A stretch of 37,390 nt of DNA from a virus (Duplodnaviria > Caudoviricetes): IMG/VR virus record IMGVR_UViG_3300020044_006524, positions 1 to 37,390 of that record; one strand, written 5' to 3'. The position numbers were made by a program, and so were the translations under genes. Under the pieces are notes generated by a model, which worked only from the letters and a program-made list of their open reading frames with translations, made no database searches and was not told the DNA's origin. Within the stretch, counting starts at the first letter, position 1. The number at the start of each line of letters is the position of its first letter. Shown here in pieces: positions 20 through 37,390 of this stretch.

Positions 20-262
20 ATGAGCACGGTTCCAGACCCTAAAGAAAAACTAGACGCGCTCGCATACGAGTCAGCGTGGGCATTCGTCCACTGCGTAGAG
101 AACGGCGAGACTAAGTCTGAGCCGCACCGGAGGCTTGCGGCGAAGTTCCTTGAGGCTTACGCTGACCGATACAATGACGAAAATTGCAGGTATCGTGCAC
201 AGAAGTTGAGGGCACAAACCAACTCTGAGGTGAACGACCAAGCTGACACACGCCATGAATAG
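20..262 (+). CDS. hypothetical protein (cassette-borne); reads into attC-like site 1
   Basis: 80 aa ORF with AC-rich leader; its stop overlaps the ATG of the next ORF inside the hairpin. Confidence 0.65.
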   Translation: MSTVPDPKEKLDALAYESAWAFVHCVENGETKSEPHRRLAAKFLEAYADRYNDENCRYRAQKLRAQTNSEVNDQADTRHE

Positions 263-318
263 ACCATCGAAATCACCAAGCAGCGCCGTATGGCGTTGTA
301 TCCAGCGCCTTGTTCGGC
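229..318 (-). mobile_element. attC-like recombination site 1
   Basis: GGTGAAC...CTGA-CACACGCCAT / ATGGCGT-TGTA-TCCAG...GTTCGGC: AAC/GTT ends, unpaired spacer, inner box with one extra base, central stem-loop. Confidence 0.65.
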
Positions 319-563
319 GGTTGTCCGCATGGGCATTGCGCGACGAACTGAGGCTCCAGCAAAACGTCAACGAGGACGCTCAGTCGCTCGTGGACGCCCT
401 GCTACGCGGGGAGCGTGCCGACGCTTACTGCGGCTATGGGCGAGACGGGCAGGCGTCCAACTACCGGGACGAACTCAAGTGGTCGCTCCATGAACTCAAG
501 AAGCCGAACGACCAGATGAGCGGCGGCACGTCCGCTCCATCGTCTAGTTCGCCAGCTTTATGA
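255..563 (+). CDS. hypothetical protein (cassette-borne)
   Basis: 102 aa; starts inside site 1, reads through site 2, ATGA overlap with the next gene. Confidence 0.6.
   Translation: MNRPSKSPSSAVWRCIQRLVRRLSAWALRDELRLQQNVNEDAQSLVDALLRGERADAYCGYGRDGQASNYRDELKWSLHELKKPNDQMSGGTSAPSSSSPAL
503..553 (-). mobile_element. attC-like recombination site 2
   Basis: GCCGAAC GACCAG ATGAGCGG CGGCACGT CCGCTCCAT CGTCTA GTTCGCC; shares GAACGACCA with site 1; one extrahelical base. Confidence 0.7.
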
Positions 564-922
564 ACTCGCCAGAACTGATCAAAGCAGAGAAACGCGCTTA
601 CGAGAAAGCGTGGAGATTGAAGAACATCGAACGATGCCGGCAATACTCGCGTGACAACTACGCGAAGAACAAAGAACGCCGCCGCGAATATCGTTCGAAG
701 TGGAACAAGGCCAATCGCGCAAAGAAGAATGCCATAAACAAGCGGTGGCGCGAACGGCACCCGGATGTTGTGAAGGAATGCAACCGCCGCGAAATCGAGA
801 ACCTATCGGCGTCGTATGTAGCCAAGAAAATGCACCTCCGTGTTGGCGAGTGTCCTCCCGAGCTTATCGAACTGAAACGAACCCATATCCAACTTCAAAG
901 ACAACTACGAAAAACAAAATGA
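560..922 (+). CDS. basic helical phage protein, possibly DNA-binding
   Basis: K/R-rich with W/Y-x-x-x-N repeats like those in N-termini of phage HNH proteins; no HNH catalytic motif seen. Confidence 0.7.
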   Translation: MNSPELIKAEKRAYEKAWRLKNIERCRQYSRDNYAKNKERRREYRSKWNKANRAKKNAINKRWRERHPDVVKECNRREIENLSASYVAKKMHLRVGECPPELIELKRTHIQLQRQLRKTK

Positions 923-1125
923 CGACACCAACGAACATGCAAGAACTCCGCGCCGTGCTCTGCGAGACAATCGCAGCCGTTCGCGCAAAAGAAATTACAC
1001 CCGACGCGGCGGAAGCCGTGAGTAATGCCAGCGGCAAAATAGTCGCGAGTTTTAGAGTTGAACTCGAATACCGAAGGATGCGCGGGGAAGTGCCAACACT
1101 CGGTTTTATGGAGGGCGCGAAATGA
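919..1125 (+). CDS. conserved-type phage hypothetical protein
   Basis: ATG at 919 (MTTPTNMQELR) overlaps the upstream stop; ATGA overlap downstream. Confidence 0.7.
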   Translation: MTTPTNMQELRAVLCETIAAVRAKEITPDAAEAVSNASGKIVASFRVELEYRRMRGEVPTLGFMEGAK

Positions 1126-1628
1126 CCAAGGAACAAGAAGACGCGCTGCTTGATGCCCCGAAACCTGCAAAGTGTTATGGGGTTAATCCAGCCAACACCC
1201 CTCGCACCGATGCGGCAACGCTTCCTTGCGGATGGGACACAACGGACCCCGTAGTAAAAAAAACCTTCGCGCAGAAATTAGAACAGGAATTGAGCACAAC
1301 TCGCGACGCCTTCGCCGCGCTGATTTACAGCGCCGAAGAAGCGTCGAAACTGATTATTTCTGTCACTGACAGATACGACATTGACGCGGCGATTGAGTCA
1401 GCAAAAGCGGTGATGGCAAATAAGGATTCAAACGAGGCTGATGCATCATGGGCGATGCAACGCAACTGGTGGCTGAACGTCTATCCAGATGGTAAAATTT
1501 CATCCGCTCTATGTCCGACCCGTGAGGATGCGCTGAATCGTAGCACCTACACTGGCGAGACTCCAGACGCGCAGCAGGTCGAAGTGAGGCTGCACATTGT
1601 GAGGCTGGCGAACAATCCAGATCACTAA
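1122..1628 (+). CDS. hypothetical protein
   Basis: 168 aa; TPRTDA motif common in phage early proteins; ends in the attI-like half-site. Confidence 0.7.
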   Translation: MTKEQEDALLDAPKPAKCYGVNPANTPRTDAATLPCGWDTTDPVVKKTFAQKLEQELSTTRDAFAALIYSAEEASKLIISVTDRYDIDAAIESAKAVMANKDSNEADASWAMQRNWWLNVYPDGKISSALCPTREDALNRSTYTGETPDAQQVEVRLHIVRLANNPDH

Positions 1629-1660
1629 CAAATTTGTCGGAATACTCCTGCACAAGATTA
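1604..1660 (-). mobile_element. putative attI-like terminal site of the cassette array
   Basis: GCTGGCGAAC (1604-1613) is the exact reverse complement of GTTCGCCAGC (547-556); no attC hairpin follows; right boundary approximate. Confidence 0.5.
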
Positions 1661-1678: not shown

Positions 1679-2026
1679 ATGCAAAAACTGAAAATCAACC
1701 TGCTAAAGCTCCACGGAGTCAAGCAATTTACATCCAAAGAAGGGACCGATTTCATCGCGATTCCGATTGCGGCGAATAACCTATTCGTGAACGACAAAAG
1801 CGTTTATCTCGACGCTACGGCACTCGAAAACAAAGAAGGAAAAGACCGATACCAGAACGACGGCTTCATTACTTTGGACATTCCGAAAGAAGCCCGAGAA
1901 GCGGGGGAGAAAGGGCCGATTATCGGGAATTGGAAGCACGTTGAGGTAAAGCCGAAAGCTGCCGCTCCAAAGGCTAAGGCTGCGCCTCCGAAGGATGACT
2001 TGGAGGATTCAGCCATTCCGTTTTAA
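1679..2026 (+). CDS. ssb: single-stranded DNA-binding protein (putative)
   Basis: OB-fold-sized beta-rich body, P/A/K linker, acidic tail DDLEDSAIPF. Confidence 0.7.
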   Translation: MQKLKINLLKLHGVKQFTSKEGTDFIAIPIAANNLFVNDKSVYLDATALENKEGKDRYQNDGFITLDIPKEAREAGEKGPIIGNWKHVEVKPKAAAPKAKAAPPKDDLEDSAIPF

Positions 2027-2044
2027 CCTCACCACAACCGCACT

Positions 2045-2080
2045 AAAAACCCCGCTCTTTAACCGGAGCGGGGTTTCTTT
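2045..2080. terminator. bidirectional intrinsic terminator
   Basis: AAAAACCCCGCTC-TTTAACCG-GAGCGGGGTTTCTTT between convergent genes. Confidence 0.8.
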
Positions 2081-29574: not shown

Positions 29575-29583
29575 CTTTCGCGC

Positions 29584-29633
29584 CTTTTCTCACTTTTGAG
29601 ATAGCTAGTCAATACTTTTTCGCAGATTTGATA
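29584..29633 (-). promoter_or_regulatory. capsid-operon promoter region with two palindromic operators
   Basis: -35 TTGACT (29612-29607); TCTCA-CTTT-TGAGA at 29588 and TCGCA-GATT-TGATA at 29620. Confidence 0.55.
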
Positions 29634-29700
29634 TAAAAATCTTTCTGCTAGGCTGAGTATAGCTTGCTATGCTGCGAGATGAAATGGCAAGATTACAGGA

Positions 29701-30231
29701 ATGAGCGAACAAAACGAACTTGCATTAAGCGGAGCACCATCAACGCTAAAATATTTACAGAATAGCGTATCGAGAGCACAGAAGCGACTTGATGAAGCGC
29801 ACGCAAATTTAGAGCAAGCGTTACTCAATCAGCGCGACAAGCCGGACGAGTTAGACGGCGAGGATTTCGAGATTGCGATTGCACGCGCAAGGGCTGAGTT
29901 CAACGACGCGGAACTTTCATACCTTCGCCAGTCCAAGTCTCAACTTGAGTATGACAAGAACGTTGACACAAACCGCCGTGACGTTTCGGAGAGTATCACA
30001 AAAGCAGACGCAGAGCGGTTTTTCTTCTCGTTTGCAATTTGCATGCGCGGGGCAGTTGAGCAAATAGCAACGCGACAGGCTCAAGAGGCGATAGAGTGCA
30101 AGTCTCCGGAAGATATGTTCAAGCTTGTCTCTCCGTTGCTTCGCGAGTGCTTTTCATCTGCGCTCAAATCTGCCGCTGACGAATGCCAAGTGCCGCCTTG
30201 GGTAAAGGCTGCAATCGAAAATGCTTTATGA
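29701..30231 (+). CDS. terminase small subunit (putative)
   Basis: 176 aa helical protein upstream of terL, resembling the coiled part of Nu1-like proteins. Confidence 0.5.
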   Translation: MSEQNELALSGAPSTLKYLQNSVSRAQKRLDEAHANLEQALLNQRDKPDELDGEDFEIAIARARAEFNDAELSYLRQSKSQLEYDKNVDTNRRDVSESITKADAERFFFSFAICMRGAVEQIATRQAQEAIECKSPEDMFKLVSPLLRECFSSALKSAADECQVPPWVKAAIENAL

Positions 30232-30497
30232 AAACCAAACCAAACCACACCACATCAACAAAACCACAAGAAGATTTTTTCCCGCTAGAGGTCGGAGAAA
30301 TAATCAGACTTAAAGAAGGCGAAACATTCCGAGTATGGAGGGTAAAGGGAGTGCATTATTCGGGAATGGGGACTCAGGATTTAGTTACACTTGAGGCATT
30401 GGACATGTATAACGGAACCGCATTCGGCTATGTCATATTGGAAACTCAAGTCCCGATTGTTTTCCTAAAGAACATTCCGCACCTCGGAAGGTTGTGA
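30228..30497 (+). CDS. hypothetical protein
   Basis: Start MKTKPNH at 30228 by ATGA overlap. Confidence 0.6.
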   Translation: MKTKPNHTTSTKPQEDFFPLEVGEIIRLKEGETFRVWRVKGVHYSGMGTQDLVTLEALDMYNGTAFGYVILETQVPIVFLKNIPHLGRL

Positions 30498-32239
30498 TAA
30501 CTAACGCACTAGAATACGCCGCTAAACATATATACTTTTGGGCTTCTAGCCCGATTAGCGGGAAATTCGATGCGAAGAAATATCCATTTATCCGCAAGCC
30601 GTTGCTGTCGCTTGACGACATCGATATAAAAGAAACCGTTGTCTATGGACCCGCGCAGAGCTTCAAGTCAGTCTTCCTTCAAATCGCCACCGCATACCGC
30701 TTAGCCATCGCGCAAAACACAGTTCTAGCCGTTGCTCAATCCGATGACTTGGCCGAGGAGTTTGCGAAGGTGAAGCTCAATCCTTTTCTCGAAAGGTTGC
30801 CGCATTTATTCGATACGCAAGTTGTGAAGCACACAATCGGCCTTTGGCGTTGGCCGAATCATGAGTTGATTATCTGCGGTCCATCGGAAAATCAGCAGCA
30901 ATCGAAATCATGCCGCTTTCTACATACCGATGAGGGACACTTGTATAAATACGGTGCGCTTGCTGCGTTGACTGACCGCATGGGGCAACGCTGGAATCGC
31001 CACGGGTTACACACCACAACGGCGGCAGACGCAGGAACGGAGATTGATACAAAGTTTCACCAAGGCGATAAGAGCGAGTGGCATATCCGGTGCTTGCATT
31101 GCAACGCGCTATTTCAGCCGCTCTGGGAAGACGAATCGCGCCGAGTTTACAACGGGCATAGGGTTTTCCAATGGCTCGACAACGGAAGCGAAACTGAAAC
31201 GCTAAACAGCATTCGATTTGTCTGTCCGCATTGCGACAAGCCGATTCAGAACGTCCCGAGAAACCGCGTTGAGATGGACGACGGCGCGGACTACATCGCA
31301 GGGAATCCGACCGCTGACAAGTCAACGCGCTCGTTCCGCTGGAATGCCTTTGCGTCACGCTTCAAGCCGCTGAGGGACTTGCTTTCCATCTATCTCAAAG
31401 CGATTGAGTCCGCGAAGCTTGGAGACTTTGCGCCTTATGAGAACTGGGTCAAAAAGCAGGAGGTGAGAACTTGGACGGGAGAAATTCCGCAAGTCGGAAC
31501 TGTCGCAATCAATCGCGACCATGAGCTTTCGCAAATTGAGGTTGTGCAGTCTGATTTGGTTCTTGGTTCTTGCGACGTGCAAAGCGAGGGCGGTTTTCAC
31601 ATATGGGCATTGGCTGACGTTTGGCATCCGAACGGAGATTCAAAGCGCATCGCGTATGACAAGCTTTCCAGCTTTGACGATTTACGCGCTTGGCAGCTTC
31701 GCCACGGCATTAAAGACTTCACTCCGGGTAAAGACCGCCACCCGTTTCTCTGCATTGACCACGGGCATCTTGAGCCTGACGTATTCGCCGCCTGCGCTCG
31801 CTGGAATTGGCTCGCAATCAAATCGACGGACGAGGATTCATTCTCGCACGTAATCAAGCGCAGGAATCTTCCAGACATGATTATTGAAAAGCCGTGGTCT
31901 GTTGTCCGCGCAGGCAATCCGCTAATCGGAAAAGCAGGAGCGCAACACGCCAAGCTCTGCGCGTCTCGCCTTTGGAGTAAGCCGAGAATGTATCAGCTTT
32001 TCTACCGACTAAAGCAGAACGAAACCGGACGGAAATACAGCATTGCAACAGACTTTTCGCCGGTGTTTGTTGATCAAGTCCACTCCTATATTCCAGCGGC
32101 AGCAATCGACAAAAAGACCGGAAGCACGTCGAAAACCTATTGGCGGAAGGTAAAGAAAGACGATCACGCTTTTATCTGCGGGACTCAATCGCTGATGCTT
32201 GCTATCATTCACGGAACATACTCTGTCCCTGACTTGTAA
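30494..32239 (+). CDS. terL: terminase large subunit, lambda GpA family
   Basis: KYPFIRKPL, Walker A GPAQSFKS, LHTDE, CLHC...CPHC zinc motif, GSCDVQ, CIDHG, DDHAF. Confidence 0.92.
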   Translation: MITNALEYAAKHIYFWASSPISGKFDAKKYPFIRKPLLSLDDIDIKETVVYGPAQSFKSVFLQIATAYRLAIAQNTVLAVAQSDDLAEEFAKVKLNPFLERLPHLFDTQVVKHTIGLWRWPNHELIICGPSENQQQSKSCRFLHTDEGHLYKYGALAALTDRMGQRWNRHGLHTTTAADAGTEIDTKFHQGDKSEWHIRCLHCNALFQPLWEDESRRVYNGHRVFQWLDNGSETETLNSIRFVCPHCDKPIQNVPRNRVEMDDGADYIAGNPTADKSTRSFRWNAFASRFKPLRDLLSIYLKAIESAKLGDFAPYENWVKKQEVRTWTGEIPQVGTVAINRDHELSQIEVVQSDLVLGSCDVQSEGGFHIWALADVWHPNGDSKRIAYDKLSSFDDLRAWQLRHGIKDFTPGKDRHPFLCIDHGHLEPDVFAACARWNWLAIKSTDEDSFSHVIKRRNLPDMIIEKPWSVVRAGNPLIGKAGAQHAKLCASRLWSKPRMYQLFYRLKQNETGRKYSIATDFSPVFVDQVHSYIPAAAIDKKTGSTSKTYWRKVKKDDHAFICGTQSLMLAIIHGTYSVPDL

Positions 32240-32281
32240 AAATAGGCTTGCGCTCATTCTCAATTTTGATACTTTGACATT

Positions 32282-32399
32282 GCCGAAGTAGAACGCGGAG
32301 AGATTCCGGCGGCGGGGCGGTTTATGTTCTTCCGTCCTTTCATTATCATCGGCCTGTTGGGGCGGCATCGGTTTCTGTTTCCGGTGCCGCTCTTTTCTC
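32282..32399 (+). ncRNA. putative stand-alone small RNA
   Basis: Own promoter (TTGCGC-16bp-TACTTT with TG), GCCGA/TCGGC-closed three-way junction, terminator GGGCGGCATCGG/CCGGTGCCGCTC-TTTTCT. Confidence 0.55.
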
Positions 32400-32432
32400 A
32401 TTATTGACATTCTCGAAAATGATAGGCAAAGT
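32396..32432 (+). promoter_or_regulatory. leaderless promoter for adaptor/portal overlapped by two operators
   Basis: TTGACA-17bp-CAAAGT, 6 nt before ATG; TCTCA-TTAT-TGACA and TCTCG-AAAA-TGATA. Confidence 0.55.
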
Positions 32433-32438
32433 ATCGCT

Positions 32439-32708
32439 ATGCCTAGCCCAACGCGCATTTTTAAAGGTCTAACACTGGAAGAACTTAACACGCTCAAAGC
32501 GACGGCCCTTTTGCGCATTGCAAACGGAGACTTCACCGCGCTCGCTGGCAACGGGCATTCAACCTCCAAGCAATACGCCATGAGGCCACAGGATATTCTC
32601 GACGAGGTAAACGCAGAGATTGAAGTGCTAACCGGAAACCCTCGCGTCACTCGCACAACTCAGGACTTCTCACGACTTAGGGTCAACAATACTACCGTAA
32701 ATGGCTAA
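32439..32708 (+). CDS. head-tail adaptor (gpW-like)
   Basis: 89 aa helix-hairpin-helix pattern between terL and portal, as in lambda. Confidence 0.65.
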   Translation: MPSPTRIFKGLTLEELNTLKATALLRIANGDFTALAGNGHSTSKQYAMRPQDILDEVNAEIEVLTGNPRVTRTTQDFSRLRVNNTTVNG

Positions 32709-34220
32709 CATCATCCAACGTGCAGCCCTAGCGGTTGCCAAGCTTGCCGGATATAACGCGGCACTTCCAAACAAGGTTCAAGCTCCCTCAACGCGCATCG
32801 GGACTAACCCTAATTCCAGCTACTCTCAACAGCAAAGGCTAAGGCTTTCGATTGAAGGCGAGAACGCTGTGAAGAATACGCCTTTCGGTGTAAATTACAT
32901 CTACACCCGCCGCGCCTATTGCTCAGGTCAGATTGCTTGGAATCCCGACACCGGAGATGCCGCGCTTGATGAGGAAGTTGCCAACGTATGTAACGCTGAA
33001 TGGTCAGACATGGGGATCGAATGCAGTATGCAAGATGCGTTCTCCCGAGTCGCTGACGTTTATTTGCCAGTGTCCGGAGATTCTGCGCTGCAATGGTATC
33101 GTGACTTGGACCGCTTGCGTTTGCTGGAAATCACAGCGGATCGGATTGGCGAGCAATTCGCGCTTTCCAATGTGATGCCGACAACTGCGGAGATTGACGG
33201 TGTGAAAGTTGACGGGATTATATTGCCGGAACTCTTTGGACGGGGCCGAAAATCACGGGATACAAAATCTATCAAAGGAACGGAGATGCAAGCTACGTAA
33301 ATCCCGATTGGATTCCTGCGCGTAACATCATCTTTTTCAAGGACGATATCACCGGAGGCGTTCGCGGTGTGTCTAAGTTTGCCGCTGCTTTGGAGGACGT
33401 AAACTCCCGTTATCAGATTCTAAAAAGCACGAAAGATACGATGCAAATGCAATCAAAGATTGCAGCCATCGCGTCAAATAACTCCGGCTCCCCGAGTGAG
33501 TATGATTTTCAGACCGTGCAAGGCACTGACGGCACGATTGATTACGTGGAATCGTTCGCTGACGGTGCCGTTGTAAAATACCAGTTCAACGGCGATTCGT
33601 ATCAGGTTCTAAAGTCTGAAACCCCTTCCGACTCGTTTCTTTCGGGACTGAAATACGTTGACGCGCAGGCATCGCTTGCAATGGGAATGTCTCCGGCTTT
33701 CCTCATTGGTTCATCCGACTTCGGCGGAGCATCCGTCCGACTGGAAATCGAAAAGGCGAGCCGCGAGATCACGCGCATTCGTGAGCACGTCCACCGCCCG
33801 AGGCTGAACAAAATCGCATACGTGACGATCATGGACCTAGTAGCCCGCGGGAAACTACCGGCTAAGGCAAACATCACACGCGGCTCTTGGCACTTCGGGA
33901 CGCTGCCAACGGCTGACGCTTTCCGAGATGCTAAGGGGGATATTGATTCGATTCGCGCAGGAACCACAACACGCGGAAGAGTAATCGCGGCAAATAGCGG
34001 GGATACGTTCCCTAGAACGCTACGCCAAACAACGCAGGAAACGGTTGCGATTCATAAAGCGGTCCAAGATGCTAATCGCGAGCTTGAGCGGTCTATTTCT
34101 CCAATCGACGGCAAGCCATATCAGCCAACTGCAAGCATTGTGGACATTGCGCTTTCAACCGATAACCCTCCACAGGCTCCTACCACTCCCGCCGCTTCCT
34201 CCGCGCCTGCATCCGCTTAA
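32701..34220 (+). CDS. portal protein, lambda family, interrupted by a -1 frameshift after 33212
   Basis: N-part LAGYNAA..RLRL...KNTPF, GDS, LLEITADRI; alternative frame from 33219 YIAG..ITGYKIY..WIPARNIIFF..VRGVSKFA runs into 33369..34220. Confidence 0.85.
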
Positions 34221-34311
34221 TTTTCGCAAGCTTGATATCGATTTGAGCAATCGCGGATTGTAGCCGTGCTGCATCGTTTGTGAGTTGTTTGATTAGGTCG
34301 GCTTTTGTCAT
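34180..34311 (-). CDS. small basic coiled-coil protein, not in the ORF track
   Basis: MTKADLIKQLTNDAARLQSAIAQIDIKLAKIKRMQARRKRREW; ATGA-coupled; overlaps the portal 3' end. Confidence 0.5.
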   Translation of the reverse strand: MTKADLIKQLTNDAARLQSAIAQIDIKLAKIKRMQARRKRREW

Positions 34312-34529
34312 TTCGCCAGTTCCTCCAACTTAACCGCCATCATTGAGAAATGAGCAGCTTCGCTTGTTCCGCCTAATTTCTCCGACTTGATTGCTTCGCG
34401 CCCGTAATACTCCGCGCAAAGCTTCGAAAGTTCCGCTTGGCTCCATTTGTTGCCCATCGTGCCGTGAATCAGCATCGCGGATACTTGGCTGATGATTGTG
34501 TGTTCCCTCATGTTTTCCTCTGTGCTCAT
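34308..34529 (-). CDS. hypothetical protein
   Basis: 73 aa. Confidence 0.6.
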   Translation of the reverse strand: MSTEENMREHTIISQVSAMLIHGTMGNKWSQAELSKLCAEYYGREAIKSEKLGGTSEAAHFSMMAVKLEELAK

Positions 34530-34533
34530 GGTG

Positions 34534-34749
34534 TTACTTCAAGTTCGGGTAGATGTTTTGTGAGTTAAAAAGCGCGAGCAAATGCGCCTTCTTGGATTGT
34601 GGCGAGTTGCGAACGATAACGCGAGCATAACGTCCGAGTCTTTCGCCGTCTGTTTCTCCGATTACTTCGCGGCTCATTGCTTCAAATCCAAGCGATGCAA
34701 GGATTGCGCTCATTCCGGTGGTGATGCCCTGTTCTGTTTTTGTTTTCAC
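34534..34749 (-). CDS. hypothetical protein (leaderless GTG start)
   Basis: 71 aa; promoter 6 nt upstream. Confidence 0.6.
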   Translation of the reverse strand: MKTKTEQGITTGMSAILASLGFEAMSREVIGETDGERLGRYARVIVRNSPQSKKAHLLALFNSQNIYPNLK

Positions 34750-34755
34750 GCTTTT

Positions 34756-34784
34756 CTTCTACTCCCTCCCCTTCATTCTGTCCA
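34756..34784 (-). promoter_or_regulatory. putative leaderless promoter
   Basis: TGGACA-17bp-TAGAAG with AT-rich upstream sequence. Confidence 0.45.
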
Positions 34785-34958
34785 ACTCTTGTTTCACAAA
34801 TTTACACAATTCATCTGAAAGCCGCATGTATGCTTGATTGCAGGGCGGTGGAAAGTTTGCGAGTCGTGGTTTATTTTGGCGATAGACGGCGGAAAAGTGG
34901 CGTGAAAGAGCAGAAAAGTCTTGCCGGCAACGTGTCAATCAACGACATTGTTTGACGT

Positions 34959-35192
34959 ATGCGAAACTGGAAGATACTCAAATGGGCCAACAGGCCGAAA
35001 CACACACACAAAATCGAATTTACCTGCACGAACTGCTGGGAAGATTCAAATCTCGAGATTGCAGGACTCGTCATGGCTCAAATCGAAGACAGCCTCGTTT
35101 TCGATAGCGACCATTCAAGCCCTGAGCAAATCGAATGCCCGCATTGCCGGAAGCAGCTCGAGCTAGAAAAGGAGGTTGAAAATGTACGGTAA
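34959..35192 (+). CDS. zinc-ribbon protein
   Basis: CTNC...CPHC. Confidence 0.7.
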   Translation: MRNWKILKWANRPKHTHKIEFTCTNCWEDSNLEIAGLVMAQIEDSLVFDSDHSSPEQIECPHCRKQLELEKEVENVR

Positions 35193-35961
35193 GTTCCATT
35201 CATCAACCTTCACCGGTTCAATGCGCGGATCCGGACCTGTTGTCTTCGCGGTGTGGGCTTACGTCGTCTCAAACACGAATCAGCACTCGGTTATTGAAAT
35301 CAATCCCGATGTCGTCGCGTTCCTTCTCGGTTGCACGCCCGCAGAAGTTGAGCAGGCAATCGAAACCCTTTGCGCTCCGGACCCGAAGAGCCGGTGTAAA
35401 GACAATGACGGGCGAAGGCTGCTAAAAGAGGGCGAGTTTCAATACTTCGTTCCGACTCACAAGCACTATCGCGAGATGAAGACGACAGAGGAAAAGCGCG
35501 AATATAACCGCGTCAAAAAGCAGGAAGAACGTCAAAGAAAGTCGAATGTCAAACGCGATGTCAAAAATGTCAAGGATGTCAACACATCAGAAGCAGAAGC
35601 AGAAGCACTATCAGATTCATACCCAGAGTCAGAAGCAAAAGCAGACTTAAACTCTATCTCTAAAAATAATAATGATGATGGAAAGAAAGTTTCTTTTTCA
35701 ATGCCAAGTCTCGAAGAGTTCACAGCATACTACGGGAAAGCAATGGAAGACGTGGACCTTGGAGAACACCTGATGCTCTCCGATTGGCTCCTAGAGCAAC
35801 ACAGCTATTGCTCGGACAAGTGGGCAGAACAGCCGGTCAATAACTGGAAAAGCCAGACCGGACGATTCACTCGGCTCTATCGCACACACTGGGAACGGAC
35901 AAAGCCTGACTTCAAACCATCGTCACAGGCTGATTGCCACGATGAAGACGTTGCCTTTTGA
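35182..35961 (+). CDS. replication initiator (lambda O / replisome-organizer-like)
   Basis: N-terminal wHTH-like MYGK..SSTFTGSM, charged helix, low-complexity linker with iterons and EAEAEA, C-terminal PSLEE..NWK domain. Confidence 0.75.
   Translation: MYGKFHSSTFTGSMRGSGPVVFAVWAYVVSNTNQHSVIEINPDVVAFLLGCTPAEVEQAIETLCAPDPKSRCKDNDGRRLLKEGEFQYFVPTHKHYREMKTTEEKREYNRVKKQEERQRKSNVKRDVKNVKDVNTSEAEAEALSDSYPESEAKADLNSISKNNNDDGKKVSFSMPSLEEFTAYYGKAMEDVDLGEHLMLSDWLLEQHSYCSDKWAEQPVNNWKSQTGRFTRLYRTHWERTKPDFKPSSQADCHDEDVAF
35512..35675. repeat. iterons / putative replication origin
   Basis: ATGTCAA at 35546, 35558, 35567, 35576; GTCAAA at 35512, 35531; AGAAGC repeats; AT-rich tract. Confidence 0.6.
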
Positions 35962-36289
35962 TCTTATGAAGAAACTACCTTACACTCACCATTACCTGAT
36001 TTATATCCGACCCATCGGCAGCGCGCATTGGTATCAGCATTGCACCGATGACGGATTGCCATACCGCACCGCGAACATGGATGATGCTCATGATGTGGCA
36101 AAACGAATCTCGGAAACACTCGACCATAGCGCAATGGTTGTGACCGTCACACTGCCAGCAATTCCGGACACGTTCCCGTATGCTTCGATTCAAGACGGGC
36201 AAACGATGTATATCCCGGCCAAGGCAAGACGCAGGAAAGCCGTAAGGGAATACCACGACGCCCGCCATCGCGTTTTTATTCCGCAGTAA
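35942..36289 (+). CDS. hypothetical protein, paralog family member 2
   Basis: HYLIYIRPIGS..W..H....GLPYRT. Confidence 0.75.
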   Translation: MKTLPFDLMKKLPYTHHYLIYIRPIGSAHWYQHCTDDGLPYRTANMDDAHDVAKRISETLDHSAMVVTVTLPAIPDTFPYASIQDGQTMYIPAKARRRKAVREYHDARHRVFIPQ

Positions 36290-36304
36290 GGGGGACGTAG
36301 CTGA

Positions 36305-36559
36305 ATGACCACTTTTCACATAGCAGCAATGACCGGCCAATGTCATTACGCAGTTGACCAAAACGGAATGAGACTTTGCAGAAAATTCAAAAACAGAACT
36401 CAGGCTATTGTTTGGCTAGTCCGCAGGTGGAATGCACGCGAGCTTGACGGTGAGATTGTCGTCTATCCGGAGTCACTATCAGACGCCATGCGACACGATT
36501 TTGATAGCTTTCCGCGAAAGATTACTGGCAAGTGGGCTGATACTCATGCGAAAGAATAA
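36305..36559 (+). CDS. hypothetical protein
   Basis: 84 aa. Confidence 0.55.
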   Translation: MTTFHIAAMTGQCHYAVDQNGMRLCRKFKNRTQAIVWLVRRWNARELDGEIVVYPESLSDAMRHDFDSFPRKITGKWADTHAKE

Positions 36560-36589
36560 AGATAGTAACAACGCAGTAACGTAGCTCTA

Positions 36590-36681
36590 TCGCAGGTTTG
36601 AGAAAGCCGCTTTCCTCTCATAAATGAGACGACGCACGCGCTCGCAAAGTTGAGAGTTGCCGGTGTGTCGCAAGTATGAGA
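36590..36681. repeat. four palindromic operators at an exact 26 bp period
   Basis: TC(G/T)CA-N4-TGAGA at 36590, 36616, 36642, 36668. Confidence 0.85.
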
Positions 36682-36803
36682 AAAGGTTAGGTATCTCGGC
36701 CACAGGAAAAAGGCATCTATTAGGCGAGACCAATCGAGGCAAGAGACTGAAAGCAACCTAACTCCCATTTTCACCAATTTTTCCAACTCACATTATAATA
36801 TCT

Positions 36804-37058
36804 ATGACCTACGCCCGTCATTTTGTCATCTGGGTGCGCCATAGCCGCTCAATAATGCCATGGAAACTGCTATGTGACAGCCGAGGGGCCGCAATAACGT
36901 GCCTAGACCGTCAAACAGCGGACGAAAGAGCTTTACAAGCGGTGGAAGGTGGCAGTGTTTGTGCCATTGTAGGCGAAACGTTGTTGCCAATCGAGCCATC
37001 GGACATGCTTTTCGCTAGGTTGAGCACTGGCGAGGAGCGATTCCTTGCTGATTATTAG
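36804..37058 (+). CDS. hypothetical protein, divergent paralog family member 3
   Basis: HFVIWVR...W......G...T...CAIV....LP....FA....GE. Confidence 0.65.
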   Translation: MTYARHFVIWVRHSRSIMPWKLLCDSRGAAITCLDRQTADERALQAVEGGSVCAIVGETLLPIEPSDMLFARLSTGEERFLADY

Positions 37059-37149
37059 CTAACTGGCACGCTCTAAGCCTAGCAAGTGCGAAAGATTAGG
37101 CTTGCAATTAGGCTTGCCACCTATCAAGAAAATTGGCGGAACCTAACTT

Positions 37150-37242
37150 TCTCACGGATGAGAGTCGCAGGAATGAGAGTCAGGATGGTGTATCAAATGT
37201 GAGACTCGCAAGAATGATACAAGCTGACTCTCAAGTTTGAGA
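37150..37242. repeat. five palindromic operators
   Basis: T(C/A)(T/G)CA-N4-TGA(G/T)A at 37150, 37165, 37191, 37206, 37229. Confidence 0.85.
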
Positions 37243-37287
37243 GCGTAAATATACCCCTTGTTTTTTGTTCCCTTAGTTCTTTCTCCC

Positions 37288-37328
37288 TCATCATCATTCA
37301 TCATCCATCCATTCATTATCATTCATTC
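37288..37328. repeat. low-complexity TCAT/CCAT tandem tract
   Basis: tcatcatcattcatcatccatccattcattatcattcattc. Confidence 0.7.
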
Positions 37329-37390
37329 CTGTCTGACTCTGCTGATTCAGTGCGAAAGCCCTAATTGAATAAAACATAAATGGTATATTT

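Follow-up and report, generated by a model that had tools for sequence, protein, structure and literature searches.

Results

Organization of the locus

The stretch of DNA analysed here, referred to as the window, is a whole virus record (IMGVR_UViG_3300020044_006524) of 37,390 bp that is linear and estimated to be 57% complete. Matches to tailed-phage helicase, methyltransferase, endolysin, tape measure, major head, and terminase genes were found in it, and an exonuclease gene is also present. Near the left end, six ORFs lie between 20 and 2026, all on the plus strand, with overlapping start and stop codons among the first five. ORF1 (20..262, 80 aa), probably a backbone gene, has no assigned function and belongs to no PHROGs or Pfam family. 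It is followed by ORF2 (255..563, 102 aa), by ORF3 (560..922, 120 aa), which encodes a basic protein of a virus-only family without assigned function, by ORF4 (919..1125, 68 aa), which weakly matches the function-less family phrog_17069, and by ORF5 (1122..1628, 168 aa). The sixth ORF (1679..2026, 115 aa) is a backbone gene that occupies the place held by intI in complete phage integrons; we presume a likeness of its product to small single-strand-binding proteins. A terminator-like hairpin at 2047..2076 on the plus strand ends the operon, and no sigma-70-like promoter match was obtained in 1-2200.

PHROGs, Pfam, the Atlas, fold modeling, and a viral fold search returned no function for the cargo genes. 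The ORF2 fold model had a pTM of 0.30 and no structural match, and a search of GenBank phages with ORF2 gave no match. At the other end of the window (29575-37390), the terminase and portal-region genes point away from the head genes, and beyond them lies a replication-gene block that adjoins ORF1 in the related genome G001, unlike in the window. This unusual gene order at 29.6-37.4 kb may be native or a misjoin; with a structural module unrelated to that of G001, the comparison gave no link to misassembly. Following the terminase gene, where a portal gene is expected (32701-34220), two ORFs of 199 and 283 aa without a family match are possibly one gene in two pieces. Short repeats at 35580-35650 encode an alternating Ala/Ser-Glu run in a putative replication gene, and their copy number differs in L001, a record of a close relative.

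Two attC sites lie within coding sequence

A reading of the sequence alone had proposed that this region holds an integron-like cassette array with two attC-like sites. On re-checking, every motif that it quoted was found where it had been placed, including two stretches of complementarity that span the intervening DNA: 7 bp between 312-318 and 503-509, and 10 bp between 547-556 and 1604-1613. Pairing of these cassette ends, over 7 bp in cassette B and 10 bp in cassette A, would restore the stem in a circle. The first site, attC B (229..318, crossover core 229-235), contains the ORF1 stop and the ORF2 start; the second, attC A (503..553, crossover core 503-509), has complementarity extending to 556. 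The top strand of both is the minus strand, on which a foldable single strand has AAC and GTT triplets as its two ends, with a 5-nt spacer, an 8-nt L'' box carrying an extra G, and a 7-nt L' box; the second spacer is 6 nt in attC B and 5 nt in attC A. The unpaired central spacer between the R and L boxes is therefore 5/6 nt in attC B and 5/5 nt in attC A. The spacer of 6-7 nt given by the sequence-only reading belongs to the same structure but was read one base in. As that reading noted, the fourth base is C in all cores of the window (GTTC), and the sites depart from the full RYYYAAC / GTTRRRY core consensus given in PMC5027507.

Geometry does not identify such sites by itself. A scanner for the attC layout gave 6 matches in the window; since 2.8 per shuffle arise by chance, a lone match is unremarkable. 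Pairing at the fourth core base occurred only in 229-318 and 503-553 among these matches, and a two-site chain with 7/7 cross-complementarity appeared in 0/100 shuffles, the geometry having been picked after the sites were seen. A scanner restricted to 5-6 nt spacers overlooked most bacterial sites, which have a spacer of 7. For a test independent of the window, we derived a covariance model (R1) from 8 attC sites of bacterial chromosomes, in which 11 of 20 pairs show changes on both sides. R1 ranked 229-318(-) and 503-553(-) first, at 36.1 and 32.1 bits, with the best other match in the 37 kb at 10.0 bits and the opposite strand of attC A, 503-553(+), at 9.3 bits. That a bacterial-only model puts both sites first supports their identity as attC sites. 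An Rfam scan of 1-2500 returned three chance matches and nothing relevant, and the attC sites were not among the longest pairs reported by a repeat finder.

As a plain hairpin, attC B did not outperform shuffled sequences in folding (z 0.17 and 0.02), and attC A did (z -2.2 and -3.3). In the array form, the top strand gives the better fold at both sites, opposite to the trend for mobile integrons given in PMC5027507; in the modelled circle the two strands are equal or the bottom strand is better. Across 71 bacterial and 56 phage sites of the same family, no folding bias towards one strand was found. On the plus strand, modelled circles folded at -20.7 kcal/mol for A and -14.7 kcal/mol for B, vs -12.3 and -10.5 kcal/mol in the array. 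Both attC sites and the site at 1613 lie within coding sequence, and their three AAC triplets are in-frame Asn codons.

Cassette A is mobile

Cassette A (509..1612, 1104 bp) comprises attC A and three coupled genes. The boundaries proposed for it are shown by empty alleles and by copies in other places. Precise absence of the 1104 bp, with 509 joined straight to 1614, was seen in three records: L001 and L002, which represent one close relative and are identical across the stretch compared, and L016, a metagenome contig. The run comparison took in the contigs of 8 runs, with the small-share runs X8, X9, and X11-X20 left out. Contigs that skip these 1104 bp, with just 5 bases of ambiguity across the AAC, were present in all four runs from four studies and then in two of four further runs, giving 6/8 (X1-X5 and X7). 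In X1-X3, an identical cassette A (0 differences over 1108-1110 nt) has unrelated flanks, and its right flank is an attC arm. Between AAC cores and attC sites, the 49-kb phage L005 carries a whole cassette A homologue that contains an internal insertion and is 86-94% identical; a variant lies inside a longer array in L006; and L007 has the first two cassette A genes without an adjacent site. In addition, the attC A site was found on another cassette in run X10. Cassette A is mobile, and it travels whole, its breakpoints falling at the core triplet, in keeping with the predicted gain or loss at GTT/AAC triplets in relatives. Its clean absence in close relatives and its unchanged form elsewhere make it likely that an integron integrase, supplied by the host or by another phage, moved it.

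These observations bear on three other accounts of the locus. One is that the hairpins are chance structures within an ordinary mosaic early operon, as could be argued from the position of the sites within coding sequence, the 2.8 geometry matches per shuffle, and the z near 0 for attC B; the precise empty allele and the R1 scores already refute it, and its probability is practically nil. The second runs the same machinery in reverse, with B plus A ancestral and A excised from the relatives. An excision would leave an identical empty junction, and cassette excision at secondary sites has been reported (10.1101/2022.09.11.507474). It is nevertheless very unlikely, given that A is missing in every sampled relative, on backbones with 10% divergence in ORF1 and about 20% divergence downstream, and is identical to copies elsewhere. 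Because ORF1 has diverged by that much among relatives while A matches the donor copies exactly, a recent gain is favoured, and we take gain as the probable direction of the event.

The third account holds that the cassettes are real and that their combination never existed, the filled allele being a chimera, formed in assembly or in the library, that joins an empty backbone to a cassette from another phage. Among the contigs listed, the filled junctions of the window itself were bridged in 0/8 runs, empty backbone and donor cassette occur together in the same runs, and the order of genes in the right-hand portion of the window is unusual. Against this, the junctions share just 5-7 bases each, fewer than the word lengths commonly used by assemblers, and two separate chimeric joints would need to fall on predicted triplets and leave the frames intact. 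We regard a chimera as highly improbable. No circle back-joint was found among the contigs listed in the 8 runs, contigs being a form of data that drops rare forms.

Cassette B and variable protein tails

Cassette B (235..508, 274 bp, 7-bp end complementarity) comprises attC B and ORF2 without its own stop. Its proposed status as a unit is borne out by a homologous cassette between AAC cores behind the helicase gene in L012/L015, where a homologous site precedes the homologous gene, and by variable ORF2 tails. The cassette B gene also occurs with a decayed attC at L014:2930-3270 and without a site at L013:2250-2470, apparently as cassettes turning into fixed phage genes. An allele lacking cassette B alone was not found; viral scans with ORF1 and with two array-edge short patterns gave only G001 and G002.

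The next site in frame sets the C-terminal tail and the stop of each cassette's last gene. ORF2 consists of an 86-aa core ending at the crossover Asn and a tail from the next site. Because this last cassette gene has no stop and reads through the Asn, its tail after the crossover is 17 aa here vs 4 aa in L001. Among 67 ORF2 homologues, the registering motif was present in 46, with the other 21 of the 67 outside the scoring; the Asn lies exactly at the crossover in 29/46, followed by 27 distinct tails. The ORF1 frame likewise continues through the crossover Asn (233-235), and attC B supplies its last 8 residues and stop. ORF5, whose stop is not inside the cassette, runs through the Asn at 1611-1613 and has another tail in L005. 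Read-through of the AAC is not general: it was found at 35/47 reverse sites in the cassette-linked set and at 14/42 in the intI-linked set.

The two ends of the array

The terminal crossover site (1604..1628, minus strand, core 1607-1613), where cassette A meets the backbone, gives the last cassette gene its stop. An attI-like site had been placed near 1613. The crossover is indeed where cassette A sits, but a profile of 23 attI-like sites, obtained at 23 of 29 loci upstream of viral intI-like genes, gives this site a score of -6.2; the G004 and L012 rows were left out of this terminal-site comparison. On a profile of 52 attC arms it scores +0.5. Since 111 of the window's 1449 AAC positions do equally well on this arm profile, calling it a half-attC is a weak call. 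From its sequence, the 1613 site may thus be a half-attC or a secondary site, and is not like the sampled attI; because attI sites are diverse, an unsampled attI type is possible. No full version of the terminal site was returned by the viral scans with the two array-edge patterns. At L019:5400-5445, in the incomplete record G003, an array-end site fits the attI-like profile (+6.5), and the next gene is a non-integrase gene, so that the record has retained attI and lacks intI.

At the left edge, a third cassette had been expected to run out of the window. It is unsupported, because the relatives that extend further left (L001 and L016) show no further attC. The segment 192..235 on the plus strand may at most hold a remnant of a further cassette's 3' end, fused to ORF1, a possible but weak assignment suggested by a single contig of X10. 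In this contig (side 25 nt, depth 2.6), a related haplotype departs from the window at 191 and rejoins it at 1662, and X6 has a loose end matching the X10 haplotype that lacks 192-1661. Within the block 192-1678, backbones differ at 1-2 positions in 44, 1 in 274, and 0 in 65, vs 15 in 148 upstream. This haplotype and a near-invariant block between flanks differing by 10-20% suggest that part of a longer array was at one time taken up as a single block, with A joining it afterwards.

Such spread of the block between backbones by flank recombination, as appears to have occurred, would also suit an account in which the attC sites are real and cassette A entered via phage single-strand annealing or another microhomology-using recombinase, the arms serving only as short shared sequence. 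Target and donor arm do have 5-6 identical core bases and share one more short block, the 1613 site qualifies neither as a full attC nor as an attI, and the window has an exonuclease gene. This account explains less well an insertion without loss whose two ends both fall at the predicted cleavage triplet, the recurrence of the same breakpoints across many unrelated contexts, and the presence of intI next to arrays of the same polarity. We judge it unlikely, and continue with insertion by an integron integrase.

Cassette genes run opposite to the classical direction

The genes of the window occupy the plus strand and the extra-G arm the minus strand, so that the array has minus-strand polarity, as the sequence-only reading had deduced. 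According to the rule given in PMC5027507, the extra bases are on the arm opposite the cleaved AAC; the extrahelical base in L'' has this position in both sites, which fits the observed breakpoint in the left core. In the complete bacterial integrons L083 and L101, the extra-G arm follows the gene on the gene's own strand. The classical cassette rule of a gene on the top strand ending ahead of its attC fails in the window, where the genes are on the bottom strand and come after their attC.

Calls with a codon model extend this orientation beyond the window. Virus loci were mostly reverse (50 reverse, 7 classical, and 26 ties at 83 sites, that is, 105 matches minus duplicates), as were sites near viral IntI-like genes (42 reverse, 10 classical, and 19 ties at 71 sites from 79 matches), whereas bacterial sites were mostly classical (5 reverse, 33 classical, and 30 ties at 68 sites). 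A polarity caller based on the longest ORF (7 reverse, 9 classical, and 12 ties at 28 sites) was too crude for phage loci, and the codon model was used instead. In related phage arrays, 26/32 adjacent sites were 7/7 complementary to the next site and 5/32 to their own end.

Many virus contigs (L200-L266) encode IntI of a more ordinary kind; their attC arrays lie upstream of it on the other strand, their genes are in reverse polarity, and their attI-like sites have in common a short consensus after the AAC. In KX853513 (Virus Rctr41k; L268:4680-9434), an IntI-like gene annotated as xerD is followed downstream by five attC matches, which share a strand with intI and the genes.

Candidate integrases

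As the sequence-only reading stated, the window encodes no tyrosine recombinase, with no PF00589 match in the record; nor was one found in G001-G005, all six of these records being less than 90% complete. Because the record is estimated at 57% complete, an integrase elsewhere in this phage is possible. The suggestion that a host or distant integrase acts in trans is supported as likely. A pattern drawn from the L006 sites was found at 138 genome loci; among the 80 listed, 52 are titled Verrucomicrobiota and 9 Planctomycetota (counted by hand, with overlapping loci counted apart). Since most of the listed loci carry the former title, they point indirectly to Verrucomicrobiota as the host group. 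IntI proteins above the TIGR02249 cut-off lie next to the same site family in L045, L083, and L101. Long arrays of Verrucomicrobiota-type attC in sequences binned as Klebsiella or Saccharibacteria (L053-L056, L066, and L079) are probably misbinned.

Phages provide a second candidate. Among array-related virus records (27 of 29 searched), an IntI-like gene was found in one complete phage, G020, and 8 of 9 near-complete records are without one. The G020 protein scores 231 bits vs the TIGR02249 cut-off of 265, has about 80 homologues with 47-100% identity over most of its length, and belongs with these to a long-branch group that a quick 37-row tree supports at 100. At the end of the reverse array in both G020 and L198, an attI-like site precedes the intI-like gene. 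IntI-like proteins of about 324 aa below the TIGR02249 cut-off lie directly after attI-like sites at L171:9241-10215 (G020), L198:818-1789, and L199:465-1409; L171 and L198 have reverse cassettes, and L199 has two near-identical cassettes in tandem. On the basis of sequence, chromosomal IntI of Verrucomicrobiota and the long-branch phage IntI-like clade are both plausible helpers.

Discussion

The locus is an integron-type cassette array without an integrase in the record. In its working it resembles an integron array, but it falls short of a complete integron, having no adjacent intI and, at its head, no site like the sampled attI. The explanation that we consider probable is that of an integrase-less, reverse-polarity two-cassette array in a phage operon, into which cassette A, likely excised elsewhere, was likely inserted at 1613 by IntI acting in trans. 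Cassette A would leave another phage's array as a circle, the plus (coding) strand folding and being cleaved in the AAC of the left core, and circularization would give a fully paired stem. The chemistry could be performed by a host IntI, probably of Verrucomicrobiota, or by the IntI-like protein of a co-infecting phage, with the 1613 target serving as a double-stranded secondary site. Given the direction of the genes, a Pc reading from attI into the cassettes would be antisense; an upstream phage promoter would transcribe the array from its distal end, so that no Pc beside attI is needed.

Phage CALINs, clusters of attC without an integrase, are known: the part of Qi et al. 2023 (PMC9892861) available to us describes 17, and IntI1 recombined 5/6 of the phage CALIN sites with attI1. 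The window resembles them, with at least 2 attC within 3 kb and no nearby intI. The same part of that paper describes the arrays of TJE1 and PH101 as typical of those in bacteria; the two R1 matches in TJE1 (22.6 and 17.8 bits) are on the gene-sense strand, the classical polarity, whereas the genes of the window are on the opposite strand. The window also differs in having its sites inside coding sequence and in natural empty and filled alleles that show movement, which that part of PMC9892861 does not report. In the literature searched, in which few subscription journals were covered, no account of reverse-polarity phage cassettes was found, including the accessible part of PMC8618304; the available portion of 10.1101/030866 mentions inversion of integrase genes and not of cassette genes.

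The integrons on Verrucomicrobiota and Planctomycetota chromosomes (L083, L101, and L045) have the same attC family and the same cross-cassette end complementarity. In contrast to the window, they have intI and attI and are mostly of classical polarity. Their cores differ as well: GTTA at 63/71 and GTTC at 6/71 bacterial sites vs GTTC at 25/56 phage sites. The complete reverse-polarity phage integrons (G020/L171 and L198) share the attC family, the polarity, and the in-frame Asn at the terminal site, but in them a conserved attI-like site is followed, about 23 nt on, by an intI-like gene, and the window has neither. Integration at attG secondary sites, presented together with SALINs by Loot et al. 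(10.1101/2022.09.11.507474), is similar in its insertion outside attI at GWT, expression from a resident promoter, and possible precise excision. It is described there for E. coli chromosomes with classical cassettes, whereas the target in the window is reused beside an existing cassette. GWT is present at 1613, which with 3 bases is uninformative, and when the L001 empty allele was compared with the motif given in that text, CRGM at +6 to +9 was absent.

A wider proposal, which we advance tentatively and with rather more doubt than confidence, is that phages of Verrucomicrobiota-like hosts run an integron network of their own. Unrelated phages would have in common a pool of reverse-polarity, translationally coupled cassettes, a phage-specific IntI clade would also serve integrase-less phages at half-sites, and the order of cassettes would rewrite the C-terminus of the upstream protein. 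Read-through of this kind explains small phage protein families with a fixed core and a hypervariable tail after an Asn. Annotation pipelines would take such inverted cassettes for ordinary genes. Because the locus gives a before-and-after pair at base resolution together with named candidate integrases, integron recombination as a driver of phage mosaicism becomes directly testable. Integrons have been regarded as bacterial tools and lately linked to anti-phage defence; here, phages appear to use the same chemistry for their own accessory genes.
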